Both the position numbers and the translations under genes were made by a program. This document shows, one piece after another, positions 1,998-52,860 of a stretch of DNA of 52,984 nucleotides. Every line of letters starts with the position of its first letter. Within the stretch, counting starts at the first letter, position 1. Under the pieces are notes generated by a model, which worked only from the letters and a program-made list of their open reading frames with translations, was not told the DNA's origin and searched no databases. The stretch is from a virus (taxonomy: Duplodnaviria; Caudoviricetes): positions 1 through 52,984 of the IMG/VR virus record IMGVR_UViG_3300031885_000019. The stretch is one strand, 5' to 3'.

Positions 1998-2183
1998 CTA
2001 CGGTATGCGGGTCTCCCGGACCTTCCGGCCCAGGAAACTGGCCGTCCAGCCCCAACCCTTAGCGGTCCAGATGTTCAGGGGACCGAGCTGAAGCTCGAAA
2101 CCAGCGTCGTCCTGCGTCCAGTCGATACTGAGCCCCAGGCCAAGGACGTTGTAGCCCAGGACAAAGAACAGTGAGAACCTCAT
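1998..2183 (-). CDS. Hypothetical protein (61 aa)
   Basis: ATGA overlap with the upstream stop, RBS GGAAAGGGAG; start shortened relative to the ORF track. Confidence 0.55.
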   Translation of the reverse strand: MRFSLFFVLGYNVLGLGLSIDWTQDDAGFELQLGPLNIWTAKGWGWTASFLGRKVRETRIP

Positions 2184-3358
2184 TCTCCCTTTCCTCCTAT
2201 GACCTCTAGGTGGCGGACCTCTTCTGCGGTCGCCAAATGGATTCTGTGATGGTGCGTCTTTCCATACTTCGGGTGCAGGAACAGGAGTTCCTGGCTGGGT
2301 AGTCCGGCCTCTGGCCGGGACCGCTCGATAGCAAGCAGAGATGGTCCAACGAAGCACCCGTTCTGGATGACCTCGCCCTGGATCTCCTTCTCTGCGGCCT
2401 GCGGCTCGTGGTGATGTCCCTGGAAGTAGTAGTGGATGATCTCGCCCATCAGTGAGTTCATCCGTAGCTTCACGTCGAAGGCACCTGTGTACGTCCGCAT
2501 CAGGTCGCCGACGCCGGAGCCGTGGCGCCCAACGCAAAGCCAGTTGAAGATGCGGACAGCCGTAAAGAAAGATCGGTGGATGTGCAGGTCGATGAGGCCG
2601 CCCTCCAGGGAGTGAATCCCATTGGCGGTCTCTTTCCACTCACCGCCCGCCGCATTCCGCAGGCGCTCGCCGATGATCTCCCAGGCGAACAACTCGGCAT
2701 TGTCCGGCGTGTAGGCTTCCCTAGCACGACTGGCCAGGCGCCCGTGGTTGCCCGGCACCTTGTAGATGACAACCTTCTTGTAGCGGGTTAGGAAGCCGAG
2801 GAGGATGTTGGTCATGTCCTCCACGAAACCCATCACCTGGAAGAGTATGGGCTCCGACATCTGAAGGGCCTGCGTTGGGAACATTCGCCCGGTCCCTTCC
2901 AGTTCATCACCCAGGGCAAAGAGGTGGAGGGTATCGACGGAGAAGATGAGTTGGCTCATCTGCGTGAATCGCAACAGTCCGTCACGCCACCGTGCCAGCC
3001 GCTCGCGGGCGATGTCGATGTTGTATTCTCCGAGACCACCAGTAACTCGGCGATCTATTTTCGAGTGATAATGCAAGTCCGAGAAGAGTGCCACCGCCTG
3101 TTGGAGGGAGTCGAAGCCCATCTCCTCGATGCGGGTGGCACGTACCTTGTCTGGTATGGGGGGAATGGGGGACCGCGCCTGGAGAAATCCAGACAGGCGC
3201 TCCAGTTGCTCCGCGGACAGATCTACCTTGGGGTCGGACGGCTTGTCGCTTGCGCGACCGCCCGGATGCTTGGGACAATACTTGACGTTGGAGTTTGGGT
3301 TTGGCGGGGCGAAAATATCGCCACAGCCAGGGAACTGGCAGGGTCGTTCCCCACGCAC
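2180..3358 (-). CDS. Calcineurin-like metallophosphoesterase with N-terminal Cys/His finger
   Basis: SDLH, GDELEG, GNHG, RHG and GHHH motifs; N-terminal CQFPGC...CPKH; RBS GAAGGGAGAGAG. Confidence 0.8.
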   Translation of the reverse strand: MRGERPCQFPGCGDIFAPPNPNSNVKYCPKHPGGRASDKPSDPKVDLSAEQLERLSGFLQARSPIPPIPDKVRATRIEEMGFDSLQQAVALFSDLHYHSKIDRRVTGGLGEYNIDIARERLARWRDGLLRFTQMSQLIFSVDTLHLFALGDELEGTGRMFPTQALQMSEPILFQVMGFVEDMTNILLGFLTRYKKVVIYKVPGNHGRLASRAREAYTPDNAELFAWEIIGERLRNAAGGEWKETANGIHSLEGGLIDLHIHRSFFTAVRIFNWLCVGRHGSGVGDLMRTYTGAFDVKLRMNSLMGEIIHYYFQGHHHEPQAAEKEIQGEVIQNGCFVGPSLLAIERSRPEAGLPSQELLFLHPKYGKTHHHRIHLATAEEVRHLEVIGGKGE

Positions 3359-3445
3359 GGGCTCTCTCCCTTCGGGGTTTAGGGCTCAGGGGATTCGCCG
3401 TCCGCCTGGGCTCCTCTTACACTTTCAGGATAGCATGTTCCGCTG

Positions 3446-9117: not shown

Positions 9118-10180
9118 CCGCCGTTTCCTCTGCCTTCTCGTTCGGATCCGGGCGCCACAGTAACGGCGCTTCTTGAATCATCCGAAGCAACTCCGGTCGT
9201 TCCGCTAGGACAGTAGAGAATTGTTTTCTCTGGAACTTGACGCCATCCAGCGCGTACCAGGATCCGGCCTGTGTGACGATTCCCAGGCGCTCCAGCAGGT
9301 CTAGTTGGCTGTTGCTGTCGTCCACGCCACCGAGGGCGTAGATGTCAAACAACCCTTGCTTTCCCTCCGGGGCGATGCTACTCTTCCTTATCTCCGCTCG
9401 CACCGTGATGCCGACCTGATCCTCGCCACTCTTGATGACGCCGGTGCTCGTGAAGTACACGAGCAGTGAGCCCCAGAAGACCAGGGCCCCTTCCCCGGCC
9501 ATCGTGTTGCGTTTCATAGCCTTCCGGCGCTCCCTACTCCGCGGGTCGCCGATGATGTCGAGGTGCTGCCGGAGCTGGTTCACGAGGATAAGGGCTATCC
9601 TGTGCTGGGCCAGCATCGGACCCAACCGTTGCATCTCACGGCTTATCGTCCTGGCAATGATGCCGGGCTGCGGCTGGTCGTCGATGGCGGCCTCCAACTG
9701 TTGCTTGGCGGGCAGCGCCGAGAGGGAATCCACGACGATGCACACCAGACGGGCAGGGTCTTCCTCTCGGACCCACTTTATGATCTCCTCGATGTCCTTA
9801 AAGCAGGCCTCTAAGGTTGTGGGCGTCGGCATGACCAGCCGGGTGGGGATGAGACCAAGGCGTTCGCCGCGGTCTCGGCTGTACCGATGCTCGGCGTCGA
9901 TGAGGATCGCCAACCCGTCTCGGCGCTGCGTTTCCGCCAGAATGTGGTAGGCGACGGTGGACTTCCCGGCCCCTTCCTTACCGTAGAACACGGTGACACG
10001 GCCGACGGGGATACCCGGTTGTCCGATGATGAAGTTCAACATCGCGCACTGGGTACTGATGAAGTCGGCTATGTCCGAACTGAGGGGCTGAGAAGCGAGC
10101 TTCAGCTCAAACTTGGCAGCAAGACGCTCCTCAAATGTGCCGGTCGCGTCCTCTGGCGGGGACGCCTTCCGTCGCGCCAT
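9110..10180 (-). CDS. recA: RecA/UvsX-like recombinase
   Basis: GIPVGRV..YGKEGAGKST, IDAEH, IVVDSL, LVNQLR. Confidence 0.92.
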   Translation of the reverse strand: MARRKASPPEDATGTFEERLAAKFELKLASQPLSSDIADFISTQCAMLNFIIGQPGIPVGRVTVFYGKEGAGKSTVAYHILAETQRRDGLAILIDAEHRYSRDRGERLGLIPTRLVMPTPTTLEACFKDIEEIIKWVREEDPARLVCIVVDSLSALPAKQQLEAAIDDQPQPGIIARTISREMQRLGPMLAQHRIALILVNQLRQHLDIIGDPRSRERRKAMKRNTMAGEGALVFWGSLLVYFTSTGVIKSGEDQVGITVRAEIRKSSIAPEGKQGLFDIYALGGVDDSNSQLDLLERLGIVTQAGSWYALDGVKFQRKQFSTVLAERPELLRMIQEAPLLWRPDPNEKAEETADA

Positions 10181-10308
10181 CTCTCTCCCTTCGTAGGCTG
10201 GGGTTCGCCGCCCCTATTGTTTCTGGTCTGCGGTAGGTGAGGCCTACACGCACGTGCAGCCTGGGCCAACCCACCCTTCCGTCCTCGGCCCCACCCACCG
10301 CGAGAACC

Positions 10309-11200: not shown

Positions 11201-11374
11201 TTAGCCCTCCACCTTCTTGAGGTAGTCCCTCACCAGTTCACCGGCACCGACGATGACGATGACCAGGAACGCCGTGGTGCTGGCACTGAAACCCAATGCC
11301 CCCACGGTCGTCGCCGCCTTCGCCAACGCACCGGCTAGGGCCGCCAGCCCTATGATAAGTGCGTACTTCTTCAC
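11201..11374 (-). CDS. Small membrane protein (57 aa), holin-like topology
   Basis: Manual translation MKKYALIIGLAALAG...FLVIVIVGAGELVRDYLKKVEG; two hydrophobic segments; RBS GAAGGGAGAG. Confidence 0.6.
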   Translation of the reverse strand: MKKYALIIGLAALAGALAKAATTVGALGFSASTTAFLVIVIVGAGELVRDYLKKVEG

Positions 11375-11394
11375 TACTGTTCTCTCCCTTCAGA

Positions 11395-14852: not shown

Positions 14853-15193
14853 CGAAGAGCCACCTCCAACTCTGGTATCTTAGACGCGAACAGGCGCATC
14901 GTATGTGTATACCTTTCCTGGAGGGGGGTACTCTCCCACAACCAGAAGAACTCGGCCAGCTCCTTCAGCCGGGCCTCTCCGTGCTTGAGAAGCAACCGCT
15001 TCACTATCCCGGCATCCTCGGCATCGAAGGGAGGGCAGGAGGCGCGGCACTCTATCCCGCGCTGGCGGAACCAGTGCAGAAACTCGCCGACCGTGTTGAC
15101 CGGCGCCGCCTCACTCCCAAGGGTCGGGCGGTACTCGGATCTCCGGACGTACACGGAATACCTTCGGTGGCCGTCCGTCAGTGTCGTCCGCAT
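14849..15193 (-). CDS. Hypothetical protein
   Basis: RBS GGAGGGAG before ATG 15193; the longer track version overlaps the HNH gene. Confidence 0.6.
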   Translation of the reverse strand: MRTTLTDGHRRYSVYVRRSEYRPTLGSEAAPVNTVGEFLHWFRQRGIECRASCPPFDAEDAGIVKRLLLKHGEARLKELAEFFWLWESTPLQERYTHTMRLFASKIPELEVALR

Positions 15194-15623
15194 CTTTCTC
15201 CCTCCGCCTTTGGGCATAGTGCTCCCGCAGATGCTTGGCTCGCGTTCTCCACGCCAGGTTGGTATCGCAGTTATGCGCCTTATTCCAGTCTTTGTGGTGG
15301 GTAATCTGGTGCGGGTCTTTCCACCGAGCTTCTGGCATCTGTGGCAACCACGCCGCCACCACCAGCCGTTGTAGGGCAATAAAGAGACTCTTCGGCCGGG
15401 GTCTATCGGTGTTCCGCAACCTATCGCCGTTGCCCGGTGGCATATAGACGTAGAGGTGTCCGTCGGGTCTCCGTACAGGTTTGATGATCCGCCCAACATA
15501 AGTACCCTTGCCTACCGTGTCCCGCCGCACCCGACCGAGGTTGGAGACAACGTAATCCGGCACGCCCGGTATCCGTTTGAACTCCTCATCTCGCTGGCAG
15601 CAGGGGCCGAAACTTTCCGGCAA
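15111..15623 (-). CDS. NUMOD4-HNH homing endonuclease
   Basis: KRIPGVPDYVVSNLGRVR (NUMOD4) and HHKDWNKAHNCDTNL (HNH). Confidence 0.85.
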   Translation of the reverse strand: MPESFGPCCQRDEEFKRIPGVPDYVVSNLGRVRRDTVGKGTYVGRIIKPVRRPDGHLYVYMPPGNGDRLRNTDRPRPKSLFIALQRLVVAAWLPQMPEARWKDPHQITHHKDWNKAHNCDTNLAWRTRAKHLREHYAQRRREKDADDTDGRPPKVFRVRPEIRVPPDPWE

Positions 15624-15787
15624 AGGTTCTCTCCCTTTATTACGTGTGACGTACTCTATTCTTAATGCCAGGGGTACAGGTCACCAGCATTAGTAGGGAG
15701 GCACCTTCTAGCCCCAGCCTTCTAAGCCTAACCCTATTAGGGATACGAAGCTGACACCATAAGGGCATACCCCTTCTCCTCAGTTCT

Positions 15788-23236: not shown

Positions 23237-23443
23237 CTAGTCTTCATCCTTCTTGCAGGGGGTGAACGTCTCGCCCTCGTTGGCTGTGTACTCGCCGCAG
23301 TTGGGGCAGACACGTTCGGGTGCAGTCTGCGCTAGGTAGTCGTGCCGGAGTTGCTTTGCAACCTCCTGCAACGTGCTGGTCTGCCTCTCGATTTCGTTCA
23401 GGGTGTCGGAGAGCGCAAGGATGCCCAGTTCTATGTCGTCCAC
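23237..23443 (-). CDS. Small coiled-coil/zinc-ribbon protein
   Basis: RBS TGAAGGGAGAG; CPNCG. Confidence 0.55.
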   Translation of the reverse strand: MDDIELGILALSDTLNEIERQTSTLQEVAKQLRHDYLAQTAPERVCPNCGEYTANEGETFTPCKKDED

Positions 23444-23557
23444 GGGTGCCCTCTCCCTTCAGTGGCAGTGGAGGCTGCTTGTCACCCGCCTCGCCGGTCG
23501 GGTGGGCAGTCGTTCCCCCATCCTACCTATATGTTAGACCTTCCACCCCGCCCCGGT

Positions 23558-26150: not shown

Positions 26151-26348
26151 CTACCGTTGACCTATGCCTTGTACTCCGCCATCCCCTACGCCCGCCACGA
26201 TCCCCAGGACCAAGAGGGCGACGGTGGTAGCAATCGCACTTAGGAGGACAAAGGCAGTCAGACCCCCAAGGATGAGGCCGAAGCCAATGTTGAATGCCTG
26301 CCCGAAGCTGACCTTGATCTCGTGTATGACGCTGGTGGTTTCGTCCAC
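26151..26348 (-). CDS. Small membrane protein
   Basis: Long hydrophobic stretch; RBS GAAGGGAGAG. Confidence 0.6.
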   Translation of the reverse strand: MDETTSVIHEIKVSFGQAFNIGFGLILGGLTAFVLLSAIATTVALLVLGIVAGVGDGGVQGIGQR

Positions 26349-26418
26349 TTGCCCCTCTCCCTTCTCTTAGGCTCTTGCTTCCGGGCCGGAGGCTCTGTCC
26401 GGCCCGGCGTGCCAGGGT

Positions 26419-27641: not shown

Positions 27642-27830
27642 TCACCGCGCCCCCAGGACACGTAGCAGGAAGTCACTGTCCTGGCCGTACTGACAAGCCT
27701 GCCGAAGAGCCGTTTCCCAGTGTGGGCCTGCCGTGGACTCCCATCGGCGGTATTCAGCTATTGCCTTATCCCAGAACACCTGTAACAGGGATAGGCACTC
27801 GTTTAGGTAGTCTTCGATTGGGTGGGGCAT
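27642..27830 (-). CDS. Early hypothetical protein
   Basis: RBS TGAAGGGAGAGAG. Confidence 0.6.
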   Translation of the reverse strand: MPHPIEDYLNECLSLLQVFWDKAIAEYRRWESTAGPHWETALRQACQYGQDSDFLLRVLGAR

Positions 27831-27891
27831 GGCTCTCTCCCTTCAGTGGTGAACCGGGGCCTATTCGCCGTAGGTCCCCGGACCCGGTAGC

Positions 27892-28230
27892 TTAGGTCTG
27901 GTCTTTCAGGTCTTCTTCTACTACCTGTTGGCAGTCTTCCGGCAAGTCCTCAAACCGAATAACCTTGCCACACGTGCCCCCCCATCCGCCGGTTGGCCTC
28001 TGGCCTACCGATTCCCCATGCTGGCAGAAGCCCTGTGGGTGAAACGGTGAGTCGGACATTGTGACGTACTCAAACACAGGCGTCCCGGTCTTATGGGGAA
28101 AGTCCTCGGATGGCAGCGGGTAGGGCGTATAAACGACGGTGTAGCGGTCGAACGTCTTGCCGCCGTTGTCATACACGGCGAATACGCCCTTCGGGTAGTC
28201 GGTCCTTGCCCGGCGGTAGGTGTTACGCAT
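27892..28230 (-). CDS. Early hypothetical protein
   Basis: YDNGGKTFDRYTVVY...PFHPQG...FEDLP; RBS TGAAGGGAGAG. Confidence 0.7.
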   Translation of the reverse strand: MRNTYRRARTDYPKGVFAVYDNGGKTFDRYTVVYTPYPLPSEDFPHKTGTPVFEYVTMSDSPFHPQGFCQHGESVGQRPTGGWGGTCGKVIRFEDLPEDCQQVVEEDLKDQT

Positions 28231-28447
28231 GGCGCCCCTCTCCCTTCAGTTGTGGTGGCAGGCTAGGAGTTTCGCCGACCCCTAACGGCCATCCCTATAC
28301 TATCGGCACGTGGGCCGGATTCCTGAATCCTCCTACTTAACCTTGCCTGTTGCCCGGAAGCCCCCTTATAACCGTTTGGTCGGAGCCTCTTGTCGCTGTC
28401 GAAGCGGTCGGGCAACAAGCAAACTCAACAGGCTACCCTACCCCGTG

Positions 28448-28648
28448 CTACCGATCCGTTAGATCAAGGTGATGGCCTTCGAAGACCGCCACTATGTTGT
28501 CTTCGTCCCGACCGTCGGCCATCACTACGGCATTTGCTATAGCATCCTCTACGCTTTCCGCCTCTACCCATTCAACAAAATCATCTGGCCCGATGCTGTC
28601 TGGGTAGAGCCCGACAACTGTGTACTTCTTTTCCTTGACTTCCGGCAT
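28448..28648 (-). CDS. Early small acidic protein
   Basis: YTVVG...VEAES...VAVFEGH; preceded by the repeated leader. Confidence 0.65.
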   Translation of the reverse strand: MPEVKEKKYTVVGLYPDSIGPDDFVEWVEAESVEDAIANAVVMADGRDEDNIVAVFEGHHLDLTDR

Positions 28649-28658
28649 GTCCTTTCCT

Positions 28659-29101
28659 CTTTTTCGTTTACAACTCTCGGTTTGTGTTTGTTGTTGCTAG
28701 GACACTCGGCCAATCCAGTATGCGCTACGCCGTCGGCTGAATGCCCGATCAAACATCTCCTTGACCGCCCGTGCTATGTCCGGGCGTGTCGCCTCCAGGT
28801 TGCCAGCCTCTACGCCACGAATCACGTAAGACAGGATCGGTCGCCCATTCTCTGCTACGTCTGCAACGCGCAAACACGTTGCTTCGTGTGGCGTATAGAG
28901 ACATGCGCCCATCCCATGCTCGCCGTGGCTGGCCTTGAATGCGTCCGGGCCAGAGTGGTCAAGCGTACAGATCGCGTTGCTGATCAGCACGTACTCCTTG
29001 ACCCGGACATCATAGGCGCAATCGCCCACCTTCAGGTTCTCATTGACATATCCCATTGCCTATCTCCTTTTTCGTTTACAACTCTCGGCTTGTGTTTGTT
29101 G
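28659..29101. repeat. 35-nt direct repeat in early intergenic leaders (28659-28693 and 29067-29101; partial third copy near 29429)
   Basis: CTTTTTCGTTTACAACTCTCGG(T/C)TTGTGTTTGTTG, one mismatch. Confidence 0.9.
28697..29056 (-). CDS. Early hypothetical protein
   Basis: RBS AAAGGAG, flanked by repeats. Confidence 0.65.
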   Translation of the reverse strand: MGYVNENLKVGDCAYDVRVKEYVLISNAICTLDHSGPDAFKASHGEHGMGACLYTPHEATCLRVADVAENGRPILSYVIRGVEAGNLEATRPDIARAVKEMFDRAFSRRRSAYWIGRVS

Positions 29102-29122
29102 CTTGTGGACCCTTACCCCGTG

Positions 29123-29416
29123 CTACCCGGCCTTCAACGTATTCGTGAACGCCTCCAACTCCATATCCGACAACTCGCAGTCAAAGCAGGCGTCCTCATC
29201 GCCCCAGAACAGTGACACCCCATTGTCGCCGGTGTAGCACGTGCCAACAAGATCCACACCCCTAAGGGCCGAACCGGAATGTCGGCGAACCTGAATGGGC
29301 GACCTGTCTCTGAGTGTGAGCAACACGGCAACATCTTCGGCCGCCTCTTCCGGGCTGTCGAAGTCGTGATAGGGGTCCTGATCGCCTACCCGCATCCATA
29401 CCTTCAGGTCTTTCAT
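29123..29416 (-). CDS. Early acidic hypothetical protein
   Basis: RBS AAAGGAG. Confidence 0.65.
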   Translation of the reverse strand: MKDLKVWMRVGDQDPYHDFDSPEEAAEDVAVLLTLRDRSPIQVRRHSGSALRGVDLVGTCYTGDNGVSLFWGDEDACFDCELSDMELEAFTNTLKAG

Positions 29417-29586
29417 CGTGTCTGACTCCTTTTCCGTTTACATTCCCTGTTGTTGCCTGTTGTCGCTGGGCTCAAAGCCAACGCCCACGCAACAGTCAAC
29501 CTAGCCGGGAACCTTCTTACCTTTATTAGGATTGCATCGCCACCGGATCATCAAGGTTAACAACGATGTTGTCAACTTAGGTTCCT

Positions 29587-29790
29587 TTACCGTGGCCCCA
29601 GCTCTGAAACGTGGGCCAGGGCCCTGTCAGCAACCTCCAACAAGCGGTCTGACTCCGCACATGTGGCCCAGAACGCTCGCCGAGCTGCCTGGTACTCTTG
29701 CTCTCGGTTCTGCTGTAGGGCTAGAGCTGCGGCGTTGGATGCGCCAACGAGCTTTGCAATGCCCCGGAACATGATCTGTCCTCTGTCCAT
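29587..29790 (-). CDS. Early hypothetical protein (best match to the candidate antisense sRNA)
   Basis: RBS AAAGGGAGAGAG. Confidence 0.6.
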   Translation of the reverse strand: MDRGQIMFRGIAKLVGASNAAALALQQNREQEYQAARRAFWATCAESDRLLEVADRALAHVSELGPR

Positions 29791-29818
29791 TGTACTCTCT
29801 CCCTTTAAAGGCCGGGGC

Positions 29819-30016
29819 TTAGATTGGCCTGTGTTCTAGGGCTGCGCACAGCTCTTTGTATGCCCGTATCTCCCGCACGGCAGGCCGTTCCTTGCAAAAC
29901 TCCCGCGCGGCCCAGCACAGGCGGGCATGGTGCGTGTCACCCGTGATGTGGCCGATATGATACAGCTCGATTAGCTGCCGGTCCTCGGCTTCTGAGAAGT
30001 CATCGAATCTGGGCAT
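29819..30016 (-). CDS. First early gene, hypothetical
   Basis: RBS TGAAGGGAGGGGAG. Confidence 0.6.
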   Translation of the reverse strand: MPRFDDFSEAEDRQLIELYHIGHITGDTHHARLCWAAREFCKERPAVREIRAYKELCAALEHRPI

Positions 30017-30197
30017 TGTACTCCCCTCCCTTCAAGTAGAGGAGGTGGGGGCGTCCCTGCCCCTATGCGGCCATCCTAGTGCTCTTGTGTCCATTCCCTC
30101 CGGTCCACGTGGCCCTTTGGGTTTGTCACCTCTAGTATCGGCCTGTTGTTCCTAATCCTAATAACGTTACGGTGACGATTGCGTTACGTCCCTAATA

Positions 30198-30776: not shown

Positions 30777-31049
30777 CTAAGGTGCCTTGGGAGTTGCTAC
30801 TGGGGAACAGCGGGGGCACTGACCGAGATGTTCTCGGTAGTGGGTGTGGCAATAGAACACCCGCTTGATGTCGGCGGGGATCGGGGTTAGGCCATCTGCG
30901 ACCGATTGGCCGTCCCGGACTGTGAAGTATAGGCCACATGGATAGCAGTTCCAGGCATCGGCACCTGGAACTAGGCTCCGGCTTACGTCCCGCTTGAGTC
31001 CGCACTTTGGGCACCGCGGGTAGGAGGCCAAGTTACGTCCACCGCCCAT
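30777..31049 (-). CDS. Zinc-finger protein
   Basis: CPKC, CYPC, CHTH, CPRC; RBS TGAAGGGAGAGG. Confidence 0.65.
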   Translation of the reverse strand: MGGGRNLASYPRCPKCGLKRDVSRSLVPGADAWNCYPCGLYFTVRDGQSVADGLTPIPADIKRVFYCHTHYREHLGQCPRCSPVATPKAP

Positions 31050-31258
31050 GTCACCTCTCCCTTCACATCCAGGGTAACAGGGTGGCGGACTTCTGGTCTA
31101 CAGGTGGTCTTTGATGAGGAAGTAGGCGGGGGCACCGTTGACGATGAGCCAGGTGACGGCGCCGAGGGCTAGGCAGCGGATGAAGAGAACCATGTTCTGC
31201 TCCTGCCGTTATTATCGGCGCCTGCGTCCGAAACCGAAGGTGTGGGCTGGCCCGACGC

Positions 31259-31459
31259 TTATACCTGGATTGTCCGGCACTTCGTACAGACCAGCCCGCC
31301 CCCGACTGCGGGGACGAACCAGTGGAATACCTCATGGCAGCGACGGCACTCCAGGTCGCTGTCCTCACGCTCCATCAAGTCGTGTCCAGAGGTGTAGGGG
31401 GGCCTGTCTTTCAGCCAACTGAGGAAGGATAGGAAGTGACAGTAGAACCTTCTCATCAT
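31259..31459 (-). CDS. Small zinc-ribbon protein
   Basis: CRRC...CTKC; TAATG overlap with the upstream gene. Confidence 0.55.
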   Translation of the reverse strand: MMRRFYCHFLSFLSWLKDRPPYTSGHDLMEREDSDLECRRCHEVFHWFVPAVGGGLVCTKCRTIQV

Positions 31460-31713
31460 TAACCTACAGGACGCCGCTCTTCCAGCAGGCCAGTGAGGGT
31501 GTCCAGTAGGCACAGGTAGCACTCCCACCACCAGACACCATGTCCAGGTTCCCGCGAGCTGCACTGGGGGCAGTTCTCGGCGTGGTCCTTGTCCACGGTG
31601 CCGTGGACCTCGAAGTAGGGGGCGAAGAGACGGCGCCGGTGGCATCGGTCGCAGCGTGACAGGAGCCGAAAGGTTGGCTCTATGGTCCAGGAATGGGCAG
31701 GTGGGTGTGGAAT
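31459..31713 (-). CDS. Zinc-finger protein (84 aa) with putative AUU start
   Basis: Manual translation with CDRC, CPQC and CYLC; GGAGGGAG 6 nt before ATT; in-frame TAG just upstream. Confidence 0.6.
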   Translation of the reverse strand: MPHPPAHSWTIEPTFRLLSRCDRCHRRRLFAPYFEVHGTVDKDHAENCPQCSSREPGHGVWWWECYLCLLDTLTGLLEERRPVG

Positions 31714-31737
31714 TGCCCTCTCCCTCCAAATACTAAT

Positions 31738-31992
31738 CGGGGTCTAACCCCATAACCCCGTCGTCCCAGGTGCGTGCCCAAAGGCCGCTTCTCGCTCCCC
31801 GGCAGATCTGGACCGGGGCCACCCGCCACTAGTATGCGGGCCCGTGTACCATAGTTCGCCTGGGCTTTCCGCTGGTCAACAGGAACCCGGAGGTTCCTGT
31901 TAGCCCGCCGTGGCTTTCACGACGGCGGGGTAGCGGGGTTAGCGGAGGCTCCTCGGACAGAGGCCACCCGTTGCCTTGGCCTCCGCCTACCC
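31738..31992 (-). ncRNA. Candidate ~255-nt structured RNA or leader
   Basis: Promoter TTGCAA-18-TG.TACAAT (31998-32027); multiple nested helices; no ORF. Confidence 0.6.
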
Positions 31993-32101
31993 TCTTGATT
32001 GTAGCAGGGCGATTCCGGCATTTGCAACAAAGTCTTTTACCGGGGCGCTTCTTATATCAACGATTAGGCCGATATTAGGGTGGAGGTTGCCTAGAAGTCG
32101 A

Positions 32102-32142
32102 AGATAATACAGAGGGCGCCGGATAGAGGATCCGACGCCCTC
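32102..32142 (-). terminator. Intrinsic terminator
   Basis: GAGGGCGTCGGAT / ATCCGGCGCCCTC stem followed by TGTATTATCTT. Confidence 0.6.
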
Positions 32143-32235
32143 CGCTCTCTGAGGCGCGGGGTGTATTGTGGTGGAGAAGGCGGCGACCCTCAGACGCCAC
32201 CACCCCGGCCTTTGAAGGGAGAGAGCTACATTGCG
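32102..32235 (-). ncRNA. Candidate antisense sRNA carrying an anti-Shine-Dalgarno tract
   Basis: Promoter TTGCAT-17-TG.TAACAT (32242-32270); 13-bp terminal hairpin followed by a U-rich tail; 28/31 complementarity to the leader of gene 29587-29790. Confidence 0.6.
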
Positions 32236-32297
32236 GACTTAATGTTAACAGATATTCATGGGGGATGCAAGCCTCCTAATAACCGTAAACACTATCC

Positions 32298-33233
32298 CTA
32301 CAGATTATCGGCGGGGGAGTAGAGGGCGTGAGCCCTCTGCGCCAGCTCTTCGGCACAGGCGGCCGTGTATCGGCGCAACATTACCACCGACTTCCAGCCG
32401 CAGATCTCCATTATGTCACTGTCCTGGGCACCCAGGCGCTTCATCTGACAGGCGGCCGACCGGCGGAAGGCGTGGACGCCCTTGTGCTGGACCCCTGCCT
32501 CCAAGCAGCGCCGTCTGATGATCTGGAGTACGCCCCAGCCGGTGAGGGGGGTGCCTCGGATGCCACGCCAGAGTGGTGGTTCTGAGATCGTCCAGTGCCG
32601 GATGTACCTCTCTATGGCTTGAAGTGCCGCCAGGCCTAGAGGTACGGTTCTGGTTCCGGTCTTGCCTGTGACCTGAACCGCCCTGCGTTCCCAATCCACC
32701 TCCCGCATCGAGACCAGTTCCCCCTCCCTGACGCCGGTATCATACAAGACGAGAATAAGGGCCCGGTCTCTTATACCCAAAGGACTTTTAGTAAAACAAG
32801 ACTCCAGTAGTCGGCGGACCTCCTCTGTGTTGTAGGTCGGCTGCGGGGTGGTGCGGAAGGACATGAGCGGGATCCCCCGCGTAGGATCCTCATCCAGTTC
32901 CCCTTCTTCCACCAGCCAGCGGAAGAAACGCCGCAGGGCGATCTGGGCCTCGCGCAGGGTCTTGTCCTTGCGCCCGGTCCGGAACTGGATGAGGTACTCG
33001 CGCAGCAGGGCGGGTGTGGTCTTGGTGAGGTCTCGGTCGCCCAGGTAGAGACAGAAGCGCCGGGCGTCCCGGACATAGTGGTAGATGGTGGAGGGCCGGA
33101 GCCCTTCCAGGATGAGTGCGCGGCCGAAGTCCTCTGTCAGATTCAAAGTCAGCGAGCGGCTGTTAACCGCTAGGTTCCAGGTTCGAATCCTGGTCGGGGA
33201 GCCAGTTTCCACCAAGCACCCCTCTAATAACAT
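32298..33233 (-). CDS. int: Tyrosine recombinase / phage integrase
   Basis: SAM-like N-domain, RDRAL...DTGVREGEL, GKTG, HAFRR, GW...MLRRY; start ATG 33233, TTG 33215 or GTG 33212. Confidence 0.93.
   Translation of the reverse strand: MLLEGCLVETGSPTRIRTWNLAVNSRSLTLNLTEDFGRALILEGLRPSTIYHYVRDARRFCLYLGDRDLTKTTPALLREYLIQFRTGRKDKTLREAQIALRRFFRWLVEEGELDEDPTRGIPLMSFRTTPQPTYNTEEVRRLLESCFTKSPLGIRDRALILVLYDTGVREGELVSMREVDWERRAVQVTGKTGTRTVPLGLAALQAIERYIRHWTISEPPLWRGIRGTPLTGWGVLQIIRRRCLEAGVQHKGVHAFRRSAACQMKRLGAQDSDIMEICGWKSVVMLRRYTAACAEELAQRAHALYSPADNL
33151..33204 (+). other. attP core: 3' portion of tRNA-Asn(GTT)
   Basis: Anticodon arm AGCGG-CTGTTAA-CCGCT, T arm CCAGG-TTCGAAT-CCTGG, TCGGGGA-G-CCA; no canonical D arm upstream. 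Confidence 0.85.
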
Positions 33234-33304
33234 CCCCTCGGCCCGATGTCAACCCCCTCAAATGCTAACTCCGCTTGACAATTCCCGCGCCTCTTTCCGA
33301 CAAT
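33224..33304. promoter_or_regulatory. Back-to-back promoters (leftward int; rightward ncRNA)
   Basis: Minus strand TTGACA(33247-52)-17-TG.TATTAG; plus strand TTGACA(33275-80)-18-GACAAT. Confidence 0.55.
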
Positions 33305-33307
33305 GGA

Positions 33308-33478
33308 AGTGTAAGAAGGTGCCCGCTGTTCGAGGGTGGGCCGCGGCGGTCTAACCACCGTCAACTGAGGGGCGGCAGATGGTGTAGGCAACAGGCACCA
33401 ATACCACCTCATTGTTGCACTAGTGGCAACGGTGAGTAACAGGAGCTTTTGGCGCAAGCCGCGGCTCCTGTTTTTCTT
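33308..33478 (+). ncRNA. Candidate ~170-nt structured sRNA
   Basis: Four hairpins then a terminator; no + strand ORF with an RBS. Confidence 0.55.
33438..33478 (+). terminator. Intrinsic terminator
   Basis: AACAGGAGC...GCTCCTGTT followed by TTTCTT. Confidence 0.7.
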
Positions 33479-33590
33479 AGTGTAGGATGAAGTCTATTAG
33501 GAGAGCGAAGAGGATAAGGGGAATCCCCAGGACGATGATCGTCCCAAGGAACACAAATAGGAATCCAGGTTCCGGGCGTTCCTTTGGCAT
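33477..33590 (-). CDS. Single-TM peptide (37 aa)
   Basis: Manual translation MPKERPEPGFLFVFLGTIIVLGIPLILFALLIDFILH; weak RBS. Confidence 0.5.
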   Translation of the reverse strand: MPKERPEPGFLFVFLGTIIVLGIPLILFALLIDFILH

Positions 33591-33617
33591 TTAGGAACCG
33601 TATCCACTAGTTCTTGC

Positions 33618-46872: not shown

Positions 46873-47481
46873 CTACAACCGAATATCGGGGAGTGCGGTG
46901 ATCCCGCGTGTCACCTCCCGATGGCATCGGGCACAGAGTGGGGTAAGGTTTCCTGCTACATAACCCAACTCAGGCTTGATGCGATGGGCCTCAGAGGGTA
47001 GTTTGTTATACCCGCAGAGCCGACAGGGGGCCGCTCTTGTATCCCTACATGCTGTAGCATCTCGACCGTAGATGCGCCGCCGACCGTGTTCGGTTTCGTA
47101 CCAGGTCTTGTAGTGTTCCATGCATAGGCCACGCGCCCGGTGTGGGTGAGGACAGTCAGGGATTTTACAGGGGCGCCGCTTACGCGGTCGATTCAACCAG
47201 CACTCACGGCACAGTTGTCCTGTGGACTCTGAGCCCTTGAGTTTAGGGCGCGGCTTTCCGCATTGCTGACATGGGTGCATGTTCTGTACATGCTTCTGGT
47301 GGCAAGGCCAACAGCGTTTGGATAGAGCAACTCCGCCGTGTTTGCCCTTGTTGAGATAGTGTCCGCAATCCTCACACCGTGCTGGTTCTTTACGCTGTTT
47401 GGCCAACCAGCATGGGCGGCAAATCTTGGATCCCGGATATACGGGATGACCACACTCTCCGATAACGTCTGGTTTAGACAT
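46873..47481 (-). CDS. HNH endonuclease with multiple zinc fingers, antisense in the capsid operon
   Basis: Many CxxC; CRLCG...AHRI...GY...NL.PLCARCH; RBS TGAAGGGAGAGAG; promoter TTGACA-18-TG.TATGGT (47503-47532). Confidence 0.8.
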   Translation of the reverse strand: MSKPDVIGECGHPVYPGSKICRPCWLAKQRKEPARCEDCGHYLNKGKHGGVALSKRCWPCHQKHVQNMHPCQQCGKPRPKLKGSESTGQLCRECWLNRPRKRRPCKIPDCPHPHRARGLCMEHYKTWYETEHGRRRIYGRDATACRDTRAAPCRLCGYNKLPSEAHRIKPELGYVAGNLTPLCARCHREVTRGITALPDIRL

Positions 47482-47575
47482 GGGCTCTCTCCCTTCATCT
47501 AAACCATAACATGGTTCCGTTACGGTTGTCAATACTACAATTCCAGGGACGATTTTAACCGAGAGAATTGCAGGT

Positions 47576-52775: not shown

Positions 52776-52860
52776 CAGGGCCGGAAGAAGTTTCAACCTC
52801 CGGGGCGGCCGGGCCATCGGCCCGTAAAGGGCCGCCCCGAACTGTTAGAAGGGAGAGAGG

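Follow-up and report, generated by a model that had tools for sequence, protein, structure and literature searches.

A phage of an uncultured lineage carries, directly after its tyrosine integrase gene (int), a conserved noncoding unit whose 5' end is complementary to an extended Shine-Dalgarno (SD) sequence shared by many of the phage's own gene leaders, and this complementarity is well beyond chance. The DNA analyzed, referred to here as the window, is the whole of the 52,984-bp IMG/VR virus record IMGVR_UViG_3300031885_000019 (Caudoviricetes; estimated completeness, 72%). The unit lies at positions 32100-32270 on the minus strand and would encode a small RNA (sRNA) of ~125 to 135 nucleotides (nt). 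Its anatomy and conservation support the view that the segment is a noncoding minus-strand unit, which is probably transcribed independently. We propose that the RNA acts in trans as an anti-SD sRNA that shares the int terminator and masks the ribosome-binding sites of early genes, a function that we regard as an evenly poised proposition.

The minus-strand arm of the window (1-34,100; termed the early arm herein) contains a recA-like gene, an exonuclease gene, a helicase gene, and numerous small open reading frames (ORFs), and the plus-strand arm from 34,169 on (the late arm) contains the structural genes. int is an ORF of 311 amino acids (aa) (32298-33233, minus strand) with a Phage_integrase domain (Pfam; E = 2e-23) and a SAM-like N-terminal domain, and a 550-nt noncoding stretch that follows it directly on the same strand holds the unit. 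The closest int homologues in genomes are XerD-like genes of Dehalococcoidia/Chloroflexota metagenome-assembled genomes (47 to 64% identity), suggesting that the host is probably a member of the Chloroflexota; further int homologues (P0002-P0017) show 60 to 77% identity.

Anatomy and conservation of the unit

Read on the minus strand, the unit consists of a promoter-like element, a variable 5' extension, a 14-nt seed, a structured body, and a hairpin resembling an intrinsic terminator (Table 1). The initial annotation, made from the letters of the window, had proposed a minus-strand promoter of the form TTGCAT-17-TAACAT with an extended TG, a terminator hairpin closing the unit, and a hand-drawn fold in which GCTCTCT pairs with AGAGAGC and leaves a bulge exposed, and each of these was recovered. 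Both hexamers and the TG are present with a 17-nt spacer, and their support comes from conservation, not from the match to consensus. The terminator scanner lists the hairpin at 32145..32109, with the tail ATTATCTTCG and the bases AUUAUCUU after the hairpin. In the computed fold, GCUCUCU pairs with AGAGAGC, GGCCGGGGUGGUGG lies within the long stem, and the loop CCCUUCAA is unpaired with a probability of at least 0.95. The minus strand folds with a minimum free energy (MFE) of -68.3 kcal/mol (z = -5.7; none of 200 shuffles as good), and the z score of the plus strand is -4.65. The same annotation had called the unit ORF-less, which is literally untrue, as ORFs of 42 aa (minus strand), 53 aa (plus strand), and 37 aa (plus strand) overlap it in a mechanical listing, and what holds is that none of them is conserved in relatives. 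No reading frame is conserved on either strand across six variants. The plus-strand ORF that starts at ATGTTA runs antisense into int and is 26, 7, 56, 36, 140, and 46 aa long in the six, and coding readings of both strands were rejected because ORF lengths and sequences differ among these variants.

A close relative, the IMG/VR phage G001, was found via int (75% aa identity) and is collinear with the window at 70 to 85% nucleotide identity. Along the region, identity to G001 is 683/936 (73%) for the int coding sequence (CDS), 17/27 from the int stop codon to the -35 hexamer, 6/6, 12/17, and 6/6 for the -35 hexamer, the promoter spacer, and the -10 hexamer, respectively, 10/15 for the 5' extension, 78/83 (94%) for the seed plus body, 24/35 for the terminator, and 45/81 (56%) for the 81 nt past the terminator. 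The body of the unit is therefore the conservation peak of the region (94%, compared with 56 to 73% for int and the flanks). The initial annotation had named as a possible refutation that the segment might be an unconserved plus-strand relic leader; this is contradicted by the conservation peak and by the loss of its reading TTG-CGG-ACT-TAA in relatives.

Additional relatives came from a scan of metagenome contigs for a pattern that required the 14-nt seed and CAGAGAG and returned 23 loci. The whole unit is present in 14 of them, one being G001, so that 13 further contigs were gained; L024 begins within the promoter. The other nine loci (L010, L011, L014, L016, L026-L029, and L031) were dropped on reading as chance pattern matches, and none was scored by R1, a covariance model built from the unit. 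Among the relatives the -35 hexamer occurs as TTGCAT, TTGCAA, TTGCGC, or TTGCGT, always keeping TTGC, and there are five different spacer sequences, all of 17 nt, next to an invariant TGnTAACAT. In each of the 13 contigs that extend upstream far enough to show it, the unit follows the 3' end of int. Owing to a 9-nt insertion/deletion (indel) between the -10 hexamer and the seed, the relatives have either a long or a short 5' form; the short variants (L012-, L013-, and L015-type contigs) have 6 nt between TAACAT and GCUCUCU, and the likely start in these would thus fall right at GCUCUCU. The long 5' forms carry AUG-UAG directly before the seed.

Public phage records gave no match to the region, whether in a distant mode (701 nt) or in a near mode (8 kb), and an exact 20-mer of the seed and stem was found only in G001 among viral contigs and in none of the genome contigs. 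R1 was run against 36 sources comprising 258,846 bases, including 20 of the 55 int loci of genome contigs (L039-L058, of which L039-L055 are Dehalococcoidia/Chloroflexota), and the window and G001 were the only two of these 36 sources in which it detected the unit. A scan of viral contigs by int alignment yielded nothing further but a truncated int at the edge of a contig, and the relatives found by their terminase (G004-G006) are late-arm fragments that do not include the region.

A consensus fold and its covariation were derived from the five distinct bodies only. It comprises 44 pairs, and 98.6% of cells are paired, compared with 41 to 54% when the 3' partner is slid by 1 to 3 columns. Five consensus pairs show changes on both sides, four in the terminator and one in the long stem (columns 32 and 56); in the terminator, 4 of 13 consensus pairs are compensatory, with every cell still paired. 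Eight of the consensus pairs occur as G.U in one or another sequence; on the plus strand these would read A.C, which supports the minus strand as the folded one. A second helix (columns 34-41 with 74-81, UCUGAGG/CCUCAGA) is paired in all sequences (100%); one of its pairs covaries (A-U in two sequences, G-C in two, and G.U in one), and a nested pair that competes with the helix, 17-76, is mismatched in two of the five sequences. Together with the upper stem, this helix would make a pseudoknot in which the whole seed is free, a possibility that with five sequences we treat as a lead only. The body also contains a 1-nt indel among relatives. Rfam yielded no match on the unit at the gathering threshold over the whole window, and relaxed searches (E up to 5 and 10; 31600-33600 and 31700-32300) gave Scr6925 as the best match on the unit (17.1 bits, E = 2.1).

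Complementarity to early-gene leaders

The 5' 14 nt of the sRNA are the exact complement of TGAAGGGAGAGAGC, an extended SD plus spacer, termed the tag herein. At up to three mismatches the tag occurs 24 times in the window, compared with 6.6 ± 2.6 times in shuffles (largest, 13). Nineteen of the 24 sites are on the minus strand; for 14 of these, the start codon of an ORF (54 aa or longer) lies -1 to +7 nt past the site. The only perfect copy on the plus strand is the one inside the unit. The 24-mer CCCCGGCCTTTGAAGGGAGAGAGC has exactly one further copy at up to three mismatches, at 29794-29817 (minus strand), and shuffles gave 0. The initial annotation had noted a match of 28 of 31 positions to the SD and start codon of gene 29587-29790 and complementarity of the core to eight further leaders. 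The former was confirmed by a BLAST search of the region against the record, in which 29788-29817 (minus strand) is 90% identical to 32203-32233 in inverted orientation (E = 3.2e-5), and all eight of the latter are among the tag sites found here. Besides the genes named in Table 1, several small ORFs without a known family are tagged.

Leaders were then taken from a crude, strand-restricted gene list of 99 entries, of which 96 were kept; the three dropped are an ORF inside the unit, an ORF inside the downstream RNA, and an ORF antisense to gene 47193-47481. Ten of the 96 leaders match the 5' 37 nt of the sRNA over a run of 10 or more Watson-Crick pairs, and 8 of them over 11 or more. When the 5' 25 nt were shuffled 1,000 times, 0.31 and 0.06 leaders, respectively, qualified on average, and no shuffle reached the observed counts. 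All ten leaders with at least 10 matches are on the minus strand, nine in the early arm, those of the recA-like and exonuclease genes among them, and one in the late arm, and none of the 22 late plus-strand genes is among them. Three tagged starts lie outside the gene list (15626, 31052, and 52847 on the plus strand); the last, at 52847-52860, belongs to a gene at the distal end of the late arm whose ORF exits the window, and there the tag has two mismatches and is followed immediately by an ATG.

The tag also recurs in relatives. On the gene strand of G001 there are 8 tags (up to two mismatches), compared with 2 for a reversed-pattern control on the same strand, and the orthologous leaders of the exonuclease gene, recA, and a 57-aa gene retain it. 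The contigs of the other relatives have tagged leaders on the sRNA-sense strand. Separately, in L012, L022, and L030 a second tag copy, TGAAGGGAGAGGGA, lies ~1.1 kb upstream of the RNA, beyond int, on the strand opposite the early genes, where it may serve as the ribosome site of a divergent gene.

The 16S genes of two Dehalococcoidia end in ...CACCUCCUUU-CU (also given as ...GGAUCACCUCCUUU-CU), and bases 1 to 8 of the tag, GAAGGGAG, can form 8 pairs (one of them G.U) with the 16S tail CUCCUUUC. Since GAAGGGAG is in itself an 8-bp SD, the conserved AGAGC(C) spacer would be unneeded for ribosome binding, yet it is common to many leaders. On the sRNA side, CUCCCUUC is identical to the 16S tail CUCCUUUC but for one base and is extended by the complement of the spacer.

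Table 1. Elements of the predicted sRNA unit and leaders proposed as its targets, in window coordinates
Feature	Coordinates	Strand	Remarks
-35-like hexamer TTGCAT	32265..32270	-	Read from sequence; 6/6 identical in G001; TTGC kept in 13/13 relatives reaching it
Extended -10, TG-n-TAACAT	32242..32250 (TAACAT 32247-32242)	-	TG one base before the -10; TAACAT and TG invariant in 14/14 relatives
Predicted start region and variable 5' extension	32227..32241	-	9-nt block missing in short variants; 10/15 identical to G001; start predicted
Seed GCUCUCUCCCUUCA	32213..32226	-	Exact complement of the leader tag TGAAGGGAGAGAGC; identical in G001
Internal loop CCCUUCAA	32212..32219	-	Unpaired probability of at least 0.95 at each position; same loop in consensus fold
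Structured body	32144..32212	-	Long imperfect stem, apical hairpin, AGAGAGC pairing with the 5' half of the seed
Intrinsic-terminator-like hairpin with U-rich tail	32100..32145	-	Hairpin 32145..32109, 16 pairs (10 G-C); first terminator after int
Leader and start of gene 29587-29790	29788..29817	-	Longest complementarity, 28/31; most favorable cofolding ddG, -25.4 kcal/mol
Leader of recA-like gene	10180..10203	-	Tag plus upstream similarity, 20/24 to the 24-mer; G001 orthologue also 20/24; Pfam RecA, E = 4.7e-32
Leader of gene 2180-3358 (PHROG exonuclease)	3361..3374	-	Tag identical in G001 orthologue
Leader of gene 27642-27830	27832..27845	-	Perfect tag
Leader of zinc-ribbon gene 47193-47481 (double-zinc-ribbon protein), within late arm	47484..47497	-	Perfect tag
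Leader of gene 11201-11374	11379..11392	-	Tag, 1 mismatch
Leader of gene 23237-23443	23448..23461	-	Tag, 1 mismatch
Leader of gene 27892-28230	28235..28248	-	Tag, 2 mismatches
Leader of gene 26151-26348	26352..26365	-	Tag, 3 mismatches
Leader of gene 29819-30016	30021..30034	-	Variant TGAAGGGAGGGGAG; 10 contiguous complementary bases
Leader of NUMOD4/HNH endonuclease gene 15111-15623	15626..15639	-	Tag, 2 mismatches
Leader of gene 30777-31049	31052..31065	-	Tag, 3 mismatches

Weighing a trans-acting role

Binding energies were evaluated as the net cofolding energy (ddG; the duplex minus both self-folds). A ddG of ≤-14 kcal/mol was obtained for 10 of 73 early leaders and for gene 47193-47481 but for none of the 22 late leaders. 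Energies of whole-length duplexes were discarded as too permissive (78 of 96 leaders at ≤-18). Among the substitutions in leaders at positions 3 to 13, 17 keep a wobble pair and 11 break pairing, a split that tips the balance to neither side. The initial annotation had concluded that one RNA silences the translation of many lytic genes through a shared SD; the conserved noncoding unit and the complementarity beyond chance speak in part for this conclusion, and an unspecific energy control and the lack of the best-target gene in G001 count against it.

The observations that weigh against a trans-acting anti-SD role concern, first, the specificity of the pairing. When the 5' 25 nt were shuffled with their C/U-rich composition kept, on average 5 leaders reached ≤-14 kcal/mol, and 5 of 45 shuffles reached 11 or more; the predicted multitarget binding is therefore largely generic to C/U-rich free ends facing purine-rich ribosome sites, although these shuffles also lose the P1 stem, which favors them. 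Gene 29587-29790, which has the longest match, is without a counterpart in G001, so this match may be a recent copy event rather than a conserved target. The shared tag itself could stem from common descent of leader cassettes together with selection for strong SDs alone. Second, the seed was found identical in G001, which was reached through int and is the sole unbiased case; its invariance in the 13 further contigs is uninformative because the search pattern required it. None of the relatives found has an altered seed, and the relatives are of low diversity (five distinct bodies). Third, parts of the unit are poor examples of their kind. The consensus promoter scanner did not call the site at 32270-32242, and by hand count only 7 of 12 positions match TTGACA/TATAAT, so that the promoter call rests on conservation; the U-tract of the terminator is poor; and the seed half GCUCUCU is paired in the MFE fold.

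With these points in mind, we infer the following course for an sRNA acting in trans. An RNA of ~125 to 135 nt would probably be transcribed from its own weak sigma-70-type promoter ~30 nt past the int stop codon and would probably end at the hairpin that also serves as the first terminator for the int mRNA; with a terminator common to both, int read-through transcripts would carry the sRNA sequence in their 3' untranslated region (UTR). In vivo, the always-unpaired loop CCCUUCAA, which resembles the 16S tail CUCCUUUC, would nucleate on the leader sequence UUGAAGGG, and pairing would spread into GCUCUCU and, for some leaders, further, covering SD and spacer and excluding the 30S subunit; the duplex may perhaps be cleaved later. 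Repression would concern about a dozen phage genes carrying the tag, nearly all of them in the early arm (recA-like, exonuclease, HNH-type, and small ORFs). Since the sRNA is tied to int, its likely role would be to damp early-gene translation when the phage is heading for, or is in, lysogeny.

The segment could instead be the cis-acting 3' end of the int mRNA, with a terminator and an RNase III-type stem for retroregulation in the manner of lambda sib, the anti-leader sequence being a by-product of an old inverted leader duplication. We consider this rather unlikely. The unit begins ~30 nt past the int stop codon, its hairpin is the first terminator after int, it always travels with int in relatives, and it contains a long G+C-rich imperfect stem; such duplexes are the kind of substrate that RNase III cuts. 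A cis-acting end needs no promoter, yet the -35, the -10, the TG, and the 17-nt distance persist while the spacer itself occurs in five variants; nor does a stability stem need 14 invariant bases complementary to a leader tag, and where structure alone matters, in the terminator, the sequence drifts (24/35). Lambda sib is cis-acting, lacks a promoter of its own, and lies beside attP. The unit shares with sib that it is structured and comes directly after int on the strand of int, but it has conserved promoter elements and the attP candidate sits at the other end of int. This candidate is a full-length tRNA-like match at 33130-33201 (plus strand; 28.8 bits, gathering score of 29), inside the 5' end of int on the opposite strand and not called by ARAGORN, which is likely the attP core; attP as an explanation of the sRNA unit was rejected on account of this location.

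It is decidedly unlikely, in our view, that the unit yields a real sRNA with other partners, be they host mRNAs with strong SDs, addressed by mimicry of the 16S tail, or a host or phage factor for which the RNA is a decoy. The match to the phage tag runs through the spacer AGAGAGC, which lies outside SD/16S pairing, is exact over 14 nt, and reaches 20 to 24 nt for the leaders of the recA-like gene and of gene 29587-29790, even though CUCCCUUC is one base off the Dehalococcoidia 16S tail CUCCUUUC and the energy control indicates that C/U-rich ends bind many purine-rich ribosome sites, so that host sites would be bound too.

There is little chance that the unit is a conditional transcription leader, in which promoter, sensor fold, and terminator would control by read-through the RNA or genes from 32027 leftwards, with alternative folds as terminator and antiterminator states. 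A promoter, a structured RNA, and a terminator ahead of further minus-strand genes are indeed the layout of an attenuator, and the second helix (34-41/74-81), with its one covarying pair, excludes P1 and the lower stem. This alternative helix, however, leaves the terminator stem untouched, a second, better, and conserved promoter lies 80 nt downstream (32027-31998), conservation over the 81 nt from the terminator to that promoter is only 56%, and no riboswitch family in Rfam matches. Very little chance remains for a segment without RNA function, that is, a decayed inverted copy of an early-gene leader or the plus-strand ribosome site of a tiny ORF: the plus strand does read like a leader (CCCCGGCCTTTGAAGGGAGAGAGC and a nearby start), is a near copy of the leader of gene 29587-29790, and in short variants has an ATG 6 nt after the tag, but the body is conserved at 94% compared with 56 to 73% around it, the terminator has compensatory changes, the plus-strand ORF varies in length (26, 7, 56, 36, 140, and 46 aa) and is antisense into int, and TTG-CGG-ACT-TAA is lost in G001.

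Several features of the neighborhood were recorded as observations in their own right. The second promoter-like site (TTGCAA-18-TACAAT with TG; 31998-32027, minus strand) is called by the scanner, is 25/30 identical to G001 between flanks of 43 to 56%, and heads a long structured RNA downstream of the sRNA unit. A sub-threshold match to the CPEB3 (hepatitis delta virus-like) ribozyme at 31932-31995 (minus strand; 25.9 bits compared with a gathering score of 35, E = 1e-4 in a 600-nt search, full model length) sits in a segment of ~130 nt (31870-31997) without a counterpart in G001. Another sub-threshold match, to the sul1 RNA motif (31793-31846, minus strand; 27.2 bits compared with 36.2, E = 0.006), falls within the second structured RNA, in a part ~80% identical to G001. 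Past these RNAs, a Cys-rich gene (31459-31713, minus strand) has the tagged leader TGGAGGGAGAGGGC and an ATT where its G001 orthologue has an ATG; by eye there is no ATG, GTG, or TTG nearby in frame, so that the gene has either an ATT start or a disabled start. Elsewhere in the early arm, BLASTN gave no match in G001 for a stretch of ~1.8 kb (28333-30133) that holds genes 29587-29790 and 29819-30016, and in G001 ~950 nt take its place, indicating that the early arm is mosaic.

Comparison with known regulators and implications

As described in a review (PMC12197685), the c4 (immI) RNA of P1/P7 is a structured, trans-acting phage RNA of ~77 nt whose loops prevent antirepressor synthesis by pairing with a phage mRNA in the vicinity of its ribosome-binding site. 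Like c4, the unit described here is a phage-encoded structured RNA that is predicted to pair at phage ribosome-binding sites. The P4 CI RNA is related to c4 and belongs to the Rfam family C4. RNAs of this family are encoded ahead of icd/ant or of the P4 replication genes and are processed out of the operon transcript that also holds their target sites, c4 itself having a single target. The unit, unlike c4, has its own conserved promoter-like elements, lies after int, and would reach about a dozen dispersed leaders (3361-31065 and 47484) via one tag, and the Rfam C4 model has no match on it, either at the gathering threshold or at E up to 10. The precedent of P1/P7 C4 and P4 CI invoked in the initial annotation thus holds as a functional analogy but not as membership of the C4 family, and the genomic logic differs.

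The same review describes P22 sar and lambda OOP as small RNAs of phages whose pairing represses phage genes, sar blocking the initiation of ant translation, and its table lists sar as trans (PMC12197685). The RNA proposed here differs from both in being encoded 1 to 29 kb from its candidate targets, many of which are matched. Both sar and OOP, in contrast, are encoded opposite their single target. Thus, phage RNAs that mask ribosome sites are known (c4 and sar), each with one neighboring target, whereas the unit described here would address many dispersed genes via one tag.

Other comparisons lead outside the phage antisense RNAs. MicL and DapZ are 3' UTR-type sRNAs of enterobacterial hosts that have their own promoter, share the terminator of the upstream gene, and depend on Hfq. 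The unit resembles them in lying right after a CDS, in having its promoter where the CDS ends and its seed in the 5' part, and in sharing a terminator with the gene before it, and differs from them in being phage-borne, in a presumed Chloroflexota host. RsaE/RoxS of Firmicutes use unpaired C-rich UCCC motifs to pair with the SDs of many host metabolism mRNAs; in place of such short, generic motifs the unit has a 14-nt exact complement of SD and conserved spacer, directed at the phage's own genes. In T4, the endoribonuclease RegB and the translational repressor RegA are proteins that shut down early phage genes via their translation-initiation regions, and the outcome proposed here would be the same with an RNA instead of a protein, which is a functional analogy only.

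A bolder version of the proposal is that of an RNA-only master switch, in which an int-coupled sRNA, a mimic of the 16S tail extended to a private early-gene tag, would outcompete ribosomes on the whole early regulon and so bring about commitment to lysogeny and/or immunity without a CI-type protein. We think this unlikely and put it forward tentatively. Among 37 distinct ORFs, no helix-turn-helix or peptidase S24 repressor families were found with Pfam and PHROGs, an absence that is weak since most small ORFs are without any family.

In a full-text literature search judged mostly from abstracts, no description was found of a phage sRNA aimed at a tag common to many of the phage's own genes. 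New here is the combination of one conserved RNA with a private tag of about a dozen early genes in a phage of an uncultured lineage. If the proposed function is true, one RNA tied to int would control translation throughout a phage regulon, and this would explain an invariant leader spacer that the ribosome does not need. An anti-tag RNA together with tagged leaders would then provide a sequence rule for finding such regulators in metagenomic phages.

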